Positions 9,412 through 12,807 of a stretch of DNA of 64,000 bases are shown here, one piece after another (position 1 is the stretch's first letter; each line of letters opens with the position of its first letter). The notes beneath the pieces are model-generated. The model ran no database searches. It had not been told where the DNA came from and saw only the letters and a list, made by a program, of their open reading frames with translations. Source of the DNA: Betaproteobacteria bacterium (GTDB lineage Bacteria > Pseudomonadota > Gammaproteobacteria > Burkholderiales > SG8-41); NCBI GenBank assembly GCA_021730905.1, contig JAKFYK010000021.1, forward strand, positions 1,636 to 65,635, written 5' to 3'. Position numbers and translations under genes: made by a program.

Positions 9412-9703
9412 AGTGACTCCTGAAGAAAATTGCTTTCTGGATAAGCCTTAAATTTTATCCCGAATTGACATCCCCCAAGGTCCAGTGATGCGTCATTTAT
9501 ATCAATTGGGGGGAAATTACTTGGCACGCAGCCAAATACCTGCCGTTTCCCGGAAATTGATCGTATGTGATTGCTTATTTTGAAGATATGTGCGCCACCG
9601 AACATTCACAAAAGATACCTGCTGATATCGTTTAAAAAGCTTTCATGTGCGCCAGCCAGATTCTTTGCTTCCTAACATTACGTAATTTCTGAGAGAAGTT
9701 TCC

Positions 9704-12688
9704 ATGGACATGCCTACACTTCGCCGTCAGTTACTGACGCTCGCCATCTTTCTAACAACGTTGACATTGAGCGGCTGGGCCTCGGCAGAGCCACCTTCGC
9801 GCGCAGCGCGCCTGAGCTACATCAGTGGCACGGTTAGTTTTTCGCCGGCGGGCCAGCCCGATTGGGTGCGGGCTGTGGTCAACCGGCCACTGACCACCGG
9901 CGACCGCCTGTGGGCGGATGACAATTCGCGCGCCGAGTTACAGGTCGGCGGCGCGGCGATCCGCTTGGGCGCGTTTACCAGCGTGACCCTGCTCAATCTC
10001 GACGATCGCATCGCGCAGATGCAGCTTTCACAAGGCACCCTGAAAATTAAAGTCCGCCGCATGGGGCAGAACCAGGTGTTTGAGGTGAATACGCCCAATC
10101 TCGCCTTCACCCTGCGCCGTGCCGGCGAATACCGCATCGATGTGGACCCGAACGGCGACGCGACGGCGGTCATGGTGCAAAGTGGCCGGGCCGAGGTGTA
10201 CGGCGACGGCGCTTCGTATGCAGTCAATCCTCAGCAAGGATATCGCTTCTACGGCACCGGCCTGTCCGACTACGAACGCTTGGCGGCACGCCGCGATGAC
10301 GACGAGCTGGATCGCTGGGCGCGCGACCGCGACCGCATCGGCGACAATTCGCTGTCCGCGCGCTATGTTTCGCCCGAACTGGTCGGCTATGAGGATCTCG
10401 ATGCCAATGGCACCTGGCGTGCCGACCCGACTTACGGCAACGTGTGGACGCCAACGCGCGTGGCCGCAGGCTGGACCCCTTACCGCGACGGCCATTGGGC
10501 ATGGATCGACCCCTGGGGCTGGAGTTGGGTGGACGATGCGCCGTGGGGCTACGCTGTGTCGCACTACGGCCGCTGGGCCAACATCAGGGGTGCCTGGGCG
10601 TGGGTTCCGGGCCCGCCACGCGAGCAGGCAGTGTATGCGCCCGCGCTGGTAGCGTTTGTCGGCGGCAATAATTTTCAGGCCACGCTGTCCATTGGCAGCA
10701 CGATCGCAGCAGCCGTCGGCTGGTTTCCGCTGGCGCCGCGCGAGGTCTATCAGCCCTCCTATCCGGTGAGCCGCAGATATTTCGACAACATTAATCGCAG
10801 CAACGCAGTGATCGCCCCCGCTACCATTACCAACGTTTACAACACCACCATCGTCAACAACACTACCATCGTCAACAAAACCGTCAATGTGACCAAGGTA
10901 GTCTATGTCAATCAGCAGGTGACGGGTGCCGTGGTCGCCGTGCCGGCGCAGGCGTTTGTGCAATCGCAGCCGGTGGCCAAGTCGGCGATGCGGGTATCCA
11001 GAGAAGCGGCCGCCAGCGCGTCGGTGGCGCATGTCGCCGCCGTGGTGCCAGTACAGCAAAGCGTGCACGGCGGCGCTCCCAACGCCGGCCGCAAGCCACC
11101 GGCCCGTGAACGAGCCGTTGTCGCCCGCACCGCGCCGCCTCCGCCACCGGTTGCCTTTGCCGCCCAGCAGCAGCAACTGGCCGCCACGCCGGGCGCGCCG
11201 ATCGGCGAAGCGCAGCGCAAGCAATTGAAACCCGCTGCTCCGGCAGTGCCGGCGCCCACGGTCAGCGTGGTGACCACTGCCCAAGCACCGGCACCGACCG
11301 CGTCGCCACCGGCGACCCCTCCGACCAGCAAGTCCCGGGACGCGCGCAAAGCGGACGCAGCGAAGGCCGATGCGGATAAGGGCGCAGCAGGTAAAACGGA
11401 TGCCGCGAAGGCAGATTCAGCAAGGGCCGACACGGCAAAGGCCGAAGCCGCCAAAGATGCAACGGCTAAAGGCAAAGCATCGAGGACCGATGCAGCGAAA
11501 GGCGAGGCAGGCAAAACAGATACTGCCAAATCCGGTGCAGCCAAGAGCGACGCAACCAAAACGGACGCCGCAAAGGCCGATTCAGCTAGAGCCGAGGCCG
11601 CCAGAGTAGACGCTGCAAAAGCCGAAGCGGTGAAAGCTGATGCTGCCAAGGGTGCGACTGCACGAGCAGACGCAGCGAAAGCCGATGCAGCCAAAGCGGA
11701 AACAGCCAGAGTGGATGCCGTAAAAGCCGAAGCGGTGAAAGCTGACGCCGCCAAGGGTGCGACTGCACGAGCAGACGCAGCGAAAGCCGATGCAGCCAAA
11801 GCGGAAACAGCCAGAGTGAATGCCGCAAAAGCCGAAGCGGTGAAAGCTGACGCTGCCAAGGGTGCGACTGCACGAGCAGACGCAGCCAAAGCCGATGCAG
11901 CCAAAGCGGAAACAGCCAAAGTGAATGCCGCAAAAGCCGAAGCGGTGAAAACTGACGCTGCCAAGGGTGCGACTGCACGAGCAGACGCAGCCAAAGCCGA
12001 TGCAGCCAAAGCGGAAACAGCCAGAGTGGATGCTGCAAAAGCCGAAGCGGTGAAAGCTGATGCTGCCAAGGGTGCTGCAGCTAGGGCCGAAGCGATGAAA
12101 GCCGATGCCGCCAAAGCCGCCACAGCTAGCGCTGAAGCTGCCAAATCCGAAGCAGCTAGAGCTAATGCCGCGAAAGCCGAAGCGATGAAAGCCGATGCTG
12201 CCAGAGCCGCCGCAGCCAGAGCTGAGGCCGCTAGCGCTGAAGCAGCCAAATCCGAAGCAGCTAGAGCTAATGCCGCGAAAGCCGAAGCGATAAAAGCCGA
12301 TGCTGCCAGAGCCGCCGCAGCCAGAGCTGAGGCCGCTAGCGCCGAAGCAGCCAAATCCGAAGCAGCTAGAGCTAATGCCGCGAAAGCCGAAGCGATGAAA
12401 GCCGATGCTGCTAGAGCCGCCGCAGCCAGAGCTGAGGCCGCTAGCGCTGAAGCAGCCAAATCCGAAGCAGCTAGAGCTAATGCCGCGAAAGCCGAAGCGT
12501 TAAAAGCCGATGCTGCCAGAGCCGCCGCAGCTAGAGTCGAAGCAGCGAAGGCTGAAGTAGCCAGAATCGAAGCCGCCAAGCCTGTTGGGGCCGCACCTCC
12601 GCCCACGGCCCGACCGCGCGCTTCGAAACCCGATCCTGACACTGCGGCGGAGGAGGAAAAGGGAAAGGGAAGGAAAAGATCCGAATAG
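9704..12688 (+). CDS. Secreted FecR-domain protein with a Trp-rich middle region, a Pro-rich linker and a long Ala/Lys/Asp/Glu tandem-repeat tail
   Basis: 994-aa ORF with a signal peptide (LAIFLTTLTLSGWASA). The FecR-like N-domain contains GTVSFSPAGQPDWVRAVVNRPLTTGDRLWADDNSRAELQ. The Trp-rich block is WTPYRDGHWAWIDPWGWSWVDDAPWGYAVSHYGRW. 35-aa repeats follow from about residue 640. Confidence 0.8.
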   Translation: MDMPTLRRQLLTLAIFLTTLTLSGWASAEPPSRAARLSYISGTVSFSPAGQPDWVRAVVNRPLTTGDRLWADDNSRAELQVGGAAIRLGAFTSVTLLNLDDRIAQMQLSQGTLKIKVRRMGQNQVFEVNTPNLAFTLRRAGEYRIDVDPNGDATAVMVQSGRAEVYGDGASYAVNPQQGYRFYGTGLSDYERLAARRDDDELDRWARDRDRIGDNSLSARYVSPELVGYEDLDANGTWRADPTYGNVWTPTRVAAGWTPYRDGHWAWIDPWGWSWVDDAPWGYAVSHYGRWANIRGAWAWVPGPPREQAVYAPALVAFVGGNNFQATLSIGSTIAAAVGWFPLAPREVYQPSYPVSRRYFDNINRSNAVIAPATITNVYNTTIVNNTTIVNKTVNVTKVVYVNQQVTGAVVAVPAQAFVQSQPVAKSAMRVSREAAASASVAHVAAVVPVQQSVHGGAPNAGRKPPARERAVVARTAPPPPPVAFAAQQQQLAATPGAPIGEAQRKQLKPAAPAVPAPTVSVVTTAQAPAPTASPPATPPTSKSRDARKADAAKADADKGAAGKTDAAKADSARADTAKAEAAKDATAKGKASRTDAAKGEAGKTDTAKSGAAKSDATKTDAAKADSARAEAARVDAAKAEAVKADAAKGATARADAAKADAAKAETARVDAVKAEAVKADAAKGATARADAAKADAAKAETARVNAAKAEAVKADAAKGATARADAAKADAAKAETAKVNAAKAEAVKTDAAKGATARADAAKADAAKAETARVDAAKAEAVKADAAKGAAARAEAMKADAAKAATASAEAAKSEAARANAAKAEAMKADAARAAAARAEAASAEAAKSEAARANAAKAEAIKADAARAAAARAEAASAEAAKSEAARANAAKAEAMKADAARAAAARAEAASAEAAKSEAARANAAKAEALKADAARAAAARVEAAKAEVARIEAAKPVGAAPPPTARPRASKPDPDTAAEEEKGKGRKRSE
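11621..12540 (+). repeat. In-frame 105-bp (35-aa) tandem repeat array, about 9 units in two subfamilies
   Basis: The unit anchor gccgaagcg recurs at 11621, 11726, 11831, 11936, 12041, 12086, 12176, 12281, 12386 and 12491. Spacing is 105 bp except at the subfamily junction. Neighbouring units differ at only 2-4 of 105 nt. Degenerate related sequence extends from about 11335 to about 12575. Confidence 0.9.
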
Positions 12689-12807
12689 AACGTGTCGAAT
12701 CGCTAGCGCTTGTTAATAATCACGCCATCAAGCGGTAAGCGCACATGAGGTTAAGCACGGGCCGCAGCGGCAGTTCAGGGCTTATTGTGGCGGAAACGTT
12801 GAATGCG

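Follow-up and report, generated by a model that had tools for sequence, protein, structure and literature searches.

The window analysed here, a 64,000-nucleotide stretch of contig JAKFYK010000021.1 from Betaproteobacteria bacterium (assembly GCA_021730905.1), contains at positions 9704 to 12688 of its forward strand a single open reading frame for a secreted protein of 994 residues, P0001, which belongs to the DUF6600 family (Pfam PF20245). More than 7,800 homologs of P0001 were found, and the named ones come from Burkholderiales-type Betaproteobacteria, among them the genera Sulfuritalea, Propionivibrio, Rugamonas, Polaromonas, Rhodoferax, Usitatibacter and Aromatoleum. The C-terminal part of the protein is a tail of 83 pentads of the form (K/R)-A-(D/E)-A-A (residues 544 to 959; 11333..12580, + strand), which is predicted to be helical from its composition and by AlphaFold2. 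Within this tail, units of 105 bp lie as higher-order repeats upon a 15-bp, or five-residue, base period that is unbroken from 11333 to 12580.

The pentads run through all 416 residues of the tail without a register break. The first position is occupied by Lys 54 times, by Arg 25 times and by Ser 5 times (K/R in 79 of 84), the second mostly by Ala, the third by Asp or Glu in 63 of 83, and the fourth and fifth by Ala in 68 and 66, respectively. Ala makes up 48% of the tail and charged residues 35%, and an acidic residue at i faces a basic residue at i+3 in 60 pairs, against only 1-2 pairs at i+4. Autocorrelation gave a peak at each multiple of 5 with the maximum at 35, while the Fourier power of charge was confined to periods 5 and 2.5, being about zero at 3.5, 3.6, 7 and 11. 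An earlier note, made from the nucleotide letters, had read the 35-residue unit as five heptads of a helical or coiled-coil spacer. Thirty-five residues are seven pentads, and the match with five heptads is a coincidence; the heptad claim fails on the missing power at 3.5 and 7, and on periods of 30, 50, 55, 60 and 65 residues in relatives, none of which is a multiple of 7. In full, the higher-order periods of the relatives were 30, 50, 55, 60, 65, 75 and 100 residues, nearly all multiples of 5 and most not of 7. At the DNA level, the relatives with Ala-rich tails have the same 15-bp base period, on which lineage-specific higher-order periods of 45-339 bp are built.

Two indel-free arrays of period 105 were reported by Tandem Repeats Finder, one at 11564-12117 (5.3 copies, 91% matches, score 856) and the other at 12125-12573 (4.3 copies, 94%, score 749), together with a fainter signal of periods 30 and 45 across 11487-12563. 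The anchor AAAGCCGAAGCG occurs at 11618, 11723, 11828, 11933 and 12038, and then at 12173, 12278, 12383 and 12488, in frame at all nine sites. The spacing and anchor positions given in the earlier note were thereby recovered with a shift of 3 nt, and its peptide consensus sequences for the two subfamilies were correct. The array begins with four A-type units of 105 bp, or 35 residues (11618..12037, + strand), which are 95-97% identical in pairs and differ at eight codons, four synonymously and four nonsynonymously. It continues through a hybrid junction of 135 bp (12038..12172, + strand), in which an A-type start carrying the fifth A-type anchor passes into B-type sequence with the register shifted by 10 residues. 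Three B-type units of 105 bp follow (12173..12487, + strand; 97-99% identity, 3 variable codons), and a decayed last B-type unit (12488..12580, + strand) is 76-77% identical to the three before it. Between the A and B units, identity is 70-73%. The 105-bp repeat is far beyond chance: identity at a lag of 105 over the whole tail was 0.812, against 0.622 (standard deviation 0.011, maximum 0.667) in 2000 shuffles of the 15-bp blocks.

Collapse, expansion or a chimera of strains could have falsified the number or order of these units, as assemblies classically go wrong at tandem units that are nearly identical and the sequence comes from a short-read metagenome-assembled genome (MAG) of 182 contigs; assemblies of relatives also differ by whole units, which may be either real or the result of collapse. 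However, the longest exact internal repeat in the array is only 87 bp and the next 72 bp, so that ordinary reads of 100-150 nt could resolve it. Furthermore, the variants are combined differently in every unit, neither the reading frame nor the pentad register nor the conserved C-terminus is disrupted, and the hierarchical structure is repeated in dozens of independent assemblies. An assembly artefact is thus an unlikely explanation of the array.

Comparison with close relatives showed that the tail turns over fast. The closest relative, P0003 (L083), is 92% identical in protein over the first 541 residues and 87.8% identical in DNA; its tail has 222 residues without 35-residue units and aligns to the tail of P0001 at 66-70% in many registers. 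The units of P0001 differ from one another by 1-5%, and its body differs from P0003 by 12% in DNA; therefore either the A and B amplifications are younger than the split of the two lineages or the units have been homogenised. This bears out the recent or ongoing expansion that the earlier note had proposed, and length differences of the kind that it had anticipated through gain or loss of units were seen in a sister lineage. In this lineage, the P0002 cluster, six proteins that are 99-100% identical have lengths of 898, 853, 833, 828, 828 and 898 residues. Their differences are confined to the tail: a block of 65 residues with the direct repeat KADAARADAAKAES at its flanks, another of 20 residues and one AEAAK pentad, that is, indels of 65, 20 and 5 residues. 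Assembly collapse is an unlikely source of the 15-bp and 60-bp indels among these. The pattern argues for a continual gain and loss of whole pentads and of higher-order units, as judged from the compared sequences.

The codon usage of the tail is distinct from that of the body. The G+C content at third codon positions (GC3) of the tail is 0.45, whereas the body has 0.755 and most of the genes nearby 0.72-0.76. Arginine is encoded by AGA or AGG in 21 of 27 codons in the tail and in 4 of 43 in the body, and lysine by AAA in 42 of 56 tail codons. Ten other Ala-rich tails have this bias; in each Ala-rich tail compared, among L003-L091, GC3 is lower than in the gene body by 0.1-0.3, with AGA/AGG for most Arg and AAA for most Lys, and Pro-type tails show the bias in weaker form. 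The codon usage of the tail looks young, and it fits a 15-bp block that was amplified recently and in which single transitions from AAA to AGA interchange Lys and Arg.

The tail stands at the end of an exported protein of several parts. A putative Sec-type signal peptide, MDMPTLRRQLLTLAIFLTTLTLSGWASA followed by EPP (9704..9787, + strand), was read by eye from the sequence, with cleavage between …SGWASA and EPP; it agrees with the description in the earlier note of an in-frame array within a gene for a secreted protein. Three residues near the cleavage site, A28, P30 and P31, do not vary among 74 homologs. Export by the Tat route is unlikely because the RR pair of the signal peptide is not conserved. 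Residues 60 to 215, approximately (9881..10348, + strand), are predicted to form a FecR-like beta-sandwich. In an AlphaFold2 model of residues 1-545, made with 74 close homologs, this domain had a predicted local distance difference test (pLDDT) of 77-88, and Foldseek matched it to 4m0h/4m0n (E 1.5e-7 to 3e-6) and to PupR (6ovk_R, E 1e-4); model and matches together place the fold with the FecR/PupR type. The hidden Markov model of PF04773 gave no match to P0001 at E up to 0.1, and PF04773 is precomputed on several of its close homologs. The Trp-rich block of DUF6600 follows at residues 229-346 (10388..10741, + strand), where P0001 scores 94.8 bits against the PF20245 gathering cutoff of 27 (E 3.7e-27). 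Only the FecR-like domain was resolved in the model, and the DUF6600 region was poor (pLDDT <50). After DUF6600 comes an Asn-x-Thr-rich, strand-prone stretch that is kept across the family (ITNVYNTTNVTNTTIVNNTTNVTKVVYVNQQV); in P0001 it includes an 18-bp repeat of 2.4 copies at 10839-10882 (about residues 375-395), which encodes NTTIV-NNTTIV-NKT. A Pro-rich hinge, read from the sequence at about residues 470-543 (11111..11332, + strand), leads to the tail, and its motifs PPPPP and PG.P(I/L)D are conserved. Beyond the tail, the C-terminal end (12581..12685, + strand) consists of a short Pro-rich stretch and a mixed-charge motif (…EEEKGKGRKRSE), and the last approximately 20 residues are rich in K, R, D and E in relatives with Ala-rich and Pro-rich tails alike. 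An NCBIfam search of P0001 gave no match, and sequence searches of the PDB with body and tail gave compositional matches only, or nothing.

A separate AlphaFold2 model of residues 530-994 contained three helices, H13-69, H85-236 and H240-428 in fragment numbering, with pLDDT of 73-84. One of the two helix breaks lies in a Gly-containing stretch. The other, at 237-239, falls within a unit whose identical copies were modelled as helix, and therefore this break is not encoded by the sequence. The 416 residues would measure about 62 nm as one continuous helix. A Foldseek search with the tail model returned 0 matches. On this modelling, the tail would most likely form one long alpha-helix based on alanine, or a small number of helices, in vivo. 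Of the earlier claim, the helical spacer is thus supported, while its heptads and coiled coil fall to the five-residue period.

A coiled coil or an Ala-packed helical bundle, by which the tail would oligomerise the protein, is suggested by the equality of 35 residues with five heptads and by the three long modelled helices, which could pack together; alanine-packed antiparallel coils do exist. Such an assembly is quite unlikely here, as the power at 3.5 or 7 residues is about zero, the relatives have periods of 30, 50, 55, 60 and 65 residues, and the predicted template modelling score (pTM) of the model is 0.26. In addition, the a and d positions are 33-38% charged in all seven heptad registers, with at most 8% of L, I, V, M or F, and the hendecad and 18-residue stripes are at least 29% charged. 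A heptad coiled coil was accordingly rejected, the tail having neither a 3.5-residue hydrophobic periodicity nor apolar a and d positions. The exact period of 5, and a superficial resemblance of A-(D/E)-A-A-K to A-(D/N)-L-X-X, could also point to a right-handed beta-helix of pentapeptide repeats; but the residue at the central position is Ala instead of Leu or Phe, AlphaFold2 gave alpha-helix, and no pentapeptide Pfam family (PF00805 and relatives) matched at E up to 0.1. This candidate was rejected, and a beta-helix is extremely improbable.

The tail could instead be a disordered polyampholyte bristle or a low-complexity filler of which only the bulk or the charge matters. Distant relatives have Pro/Gln-rich, clearly non-globular tails at the same place, and the quick turnover of tail sequence and its unoptimised codon usage would suit such a filler. 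Yet a content of 48% Ala combined with regular opposite charges at i and i+3 strongly favours a helix, which AlphaFold2 also gave at the above pLDDT, and the strict register of 83 pentads suggests either selection on periodicity or gain and loss of whole pentads only. A disordered tail is thus rather unlikely.

In the wider family, most tails are rich in Pro and Gln. Among 100 complete relatives two classes of tail were distinguished: Ala-pentad tails, with an Ala fraction of 0.35-0.49, Pro of at most 0.07 and a five-residue periodicity in most, and Pro/Gln-rich repeat tails, with lower Ala, Pro of 0.15-0.34 and no five-residue periodicity. Rugamonas apoptosis, for example, carries an Ala tail (P0091), and strains of Aromatoleum carry Pro tails (L022, L023, L030, L070). 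The tail of P0001 is the longest of the Ala-pentad class, with 416 residues against 57-366 among the 121 best homologs, and has the most homogeneous 105-bp units; its body is 72-92% identical to the bodies of the listed homologs. A maximum-likelihood tree was built by a quick method from the N-terminal cores without tails (92 rows, unrooted, with midpoint rooting applied). In this tree 18 Ala-tail proteins lie on one side of one branch (SH-like approximate likelihood ratio test, SH-aLRT, 100; 1 change), nested among 73 Pro tails. The Ala-pentad tails thus form one clade, which suggests a single switch from a Pro/Gln-rich tail. Across the family the tail appears to be a spacer that can be exchanged while the N-terminal module and the C-terminal peptide on either side of it are conserved, the spacer role being suggested by the sequence comparison. 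The neighbours of P0001 in the window never recur beside its homologs, and no neighbour cluster with a consistent position was found; therefore the operon context gives no clue to function. A literature search on DUF6600 and on FecR/proline-rich exported proteins found nothing.

Based on these findings, a model is proposed in which an exported DUF6600 protein ends in a helical spacer of alanine pentads whose length changes by hierarchical tandem duplication, a reading that is held to be probable. In the model, a 15-bp block (AAA GCC GAN GCN GCC) would have been amplified into the tail of 416 residues, after which two recent in-frame higher-order duplications would have generated the four A and three B units of 105 bp each; further change would come by slippage or by unequal recombination between the repeats. 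The reading frame and the pentad register would be kept because each event adds or removes whole pentads. The helix would be stabilised by pairs of Glu or Asp at i with Lys or Arg at i+3, and, as a stiff spacer of changeable length, would set the FecR-like/DUF6600 module and the charged C-terminal motif of a cell-envelope protein up to about 60 nm apart. Such a tail would have replaced an ancestral Pro/Gln-rich repeat tail once in the family, in the way that the linkers of TolA and TonB switch.

Several points weigh against this model. The count of units rests on the one MAG, and the length differences in the P0002 cluster could partly be assembly collapse of the 195-bp (65-residue) unit. The AlphaFold2 run on the tail was a single-sequence run with the low pTM given above, and Ala-rich sequence tends to be called helical. 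A helix of 52-62 nm exceeds a typical periplasm, so that spanning it perpendicularly fits poorly. Whether the Ala tail was gained or lost depends on the midpoint rooting of a quick, unrooted tree. Finally, conserved neighbours and a DUF6600 literature are both missing, and the cellular location is derived from a signal peptide read by eye.

A bolder proposal goes further: the tail would be a natural, monomeric, alanine-based single alpha-helix (SAH) of about 50-60 nm, built of pentads with (i,i+3) Glu/Lys pairs and representing an SAH class distinct from the ER/K type. It would have a single origin in the DUF6600 family, where it replaced a proline-rich spacer. Populations would tune its length by gaining and losing pentads as wholes, and its role would be to set distances adjustably in the envelope of Betaproteobacteria. 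Taken as a whole, this proposal is possible though doubtful.

Among the closest known parallels are TolA and TonB, in which the domain II linkers alternate between helical and proline-rich forms across clades while the end modules remain constant (PMC12204202). The tail of P0001 resembles these linkers as a long, repeat-built, Ala/Lys/Glu-rich helical linker of an envelope protein, in a family with a switch between helical and proline-rich forms. It differs in that P0001 belongs to another family, has a cleavable signal peptide instead of an N-terminal membrane anchor with a motor-binding motif, and carries its globular part at the N-terminus; no TonB_C or TolA match was found in Pfam for P0001, which ends in a short charged peptide. 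A protein of 800 residues in the same genome (G000:C53:24232-26634; ORF at 1081..3483 of L002, + strand) does have a weak TonB C-terminal match (PF13103, E 1e-4). Besides a Pro-rich segment it has a long helix of repeats of the EAARLEAERQEAARQ type (RQEAA/RLEAE-type), which is another pentad/decad linker of Ala, Arg and Glu, in this case within a TolA/TonB-like protein. Among described proteins, P0001 is a member of the group annotated as DUF6600, "FecR family" or "putative prolin-rich exported" in Betaproteobacteria (PF20245), with which it shares the full architecture.

Circularly permuted, the pentad KAEAA becomes AEAAK, the unit of a classic helical peptide based on alanine. The alanine peptides (AEAAK)n were reportedly found to be monomeric helices by Marqusee and Baldwin in 1987. 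By analogy with these peptides, and with engineered rigid linkers of the (EAAAK)n type, the Glu(i)-Lys(i+3) spacing of the P0001 tail would be expected to give a monomeric, stiff helix; with 83 units the tail is far longer than any known designed linker. Natural SAH domains of the ER/K type are rich in E, K and R with i/i+4 pairs, whereas the tail of P0001, with its 48% Ala and 35% charged residues, has almost only i/i+3 pairs. The ER/K class, which has a high content of E, K and R and dense i/i+4 pairs, was therefore rejected for this tail, although it may work in an SAH-like way. SAH domains are described as spacers of set length (PMC5347031).

The array can also be compared with the in-frame variable-number tandem repeats of bacterial surface and envelope proteins, which it resembles in its near-identical units and in keeping the frame. 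Whole-unit differences between near-identical proteins were seen in the sister lineage, where the 65-residue one may reflect assembly collapse; the exact P0001 sequence was absent from the protein collection searched. Unlike those repeats of surface and envelope proteins, the repeats of P0001 are hierarchical, 15 bp inside 105 bp, and belong to an environmental betaproteobacterium; antigenic variation or on/off phase variation is unsupported.

Pentads of this kind are not confined to the family. A search with the tail alone against 1.84 billion representative proteins gave 914 matches at E up to 0.001, many of them unrelated proteins with (K/R)x(E/D)AA arrays of 10-46 pentads, which stand beside domains such as DnaJ, Cds6_C, thioredoxin, Sel1 with PG_binding_1, AMIN and lycopene cyclase. 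The pentad helix therefore recurs as a linker module of a generic kind, and the run in P0001 is the longest seen (70 pentads by strict count, 83 overall). Among the matches, which include P0125-P0252, such arrays serve as linkers in hundreds of unrelated proteins, with variants such as KVEAA, RAEAA, RLEAA and KADDA; one of these proteins weakly matches the "Decapeptide repeat region" of Pfam (PF25296).

Helical linkers that are built of repeats and vary in copy number are thus a known kind of feature, to which the tail of P0001, in an uncharacterised family, belongs, and it reveals no new mechanism. Its value lies in being a clear natural case of hierarchical repeat evolution, in which length changes while frame and structural register are kept, and in a family that can trade a proline-rich for a helical spacer and so offers a system for asking if the length or type of a spacer matters in the envelope. 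Gene callers and assemblers need care with such tails. In fact, an open reading frame of 576 residues, rich in Ala, Ser and Leu, overlaps the tail in antisense (10912..12642, - strand); most likely it is no gene but arises as a by-product of the GCN-rich repeats, and it carries a risk of being miscalled.

The gene lies in a 3.3-kb single-gene segment (9463..12805) that is absent from two genomes of the same genus, in which the flanking genes are 4 bp (G011) and 38 bp (G003) apart. The tryptophanyl-tRNA synthetase gene, 5 kb upstream on the contig, is 91-96% identical to its counterparts in same-genus genomes. A good DUF6600 match was found in 6 of 20 same-genus species at 43-66% identity; one match was cut short, and the tail was Pro/Gln-rich in all cases in which it was recovered. 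The nearest homologs of P0001 (79-92%) are in differently labelled MAGs, against at most 66% for the same-genus homologs. Composition gave no signal of transfer, the body GC3 being equal to that of the neighbouring genes. Acquisition of the DUF6600 gene from another betaproteobacterial lineage is plausible, on the grounds of synteny and identity. In two other species different cargo occupies the same place, either an MBL-fold/rhodanese gene with a Bug receptor or an HD-GYP-like gene. The intergenic region upstream of the P0001 gene (9412-9703, 292 bp), in which a simple scan detected no sigma-70 consensus promoter, is AT-rich, with a GC content of 0.41 against 0.60 for the window.

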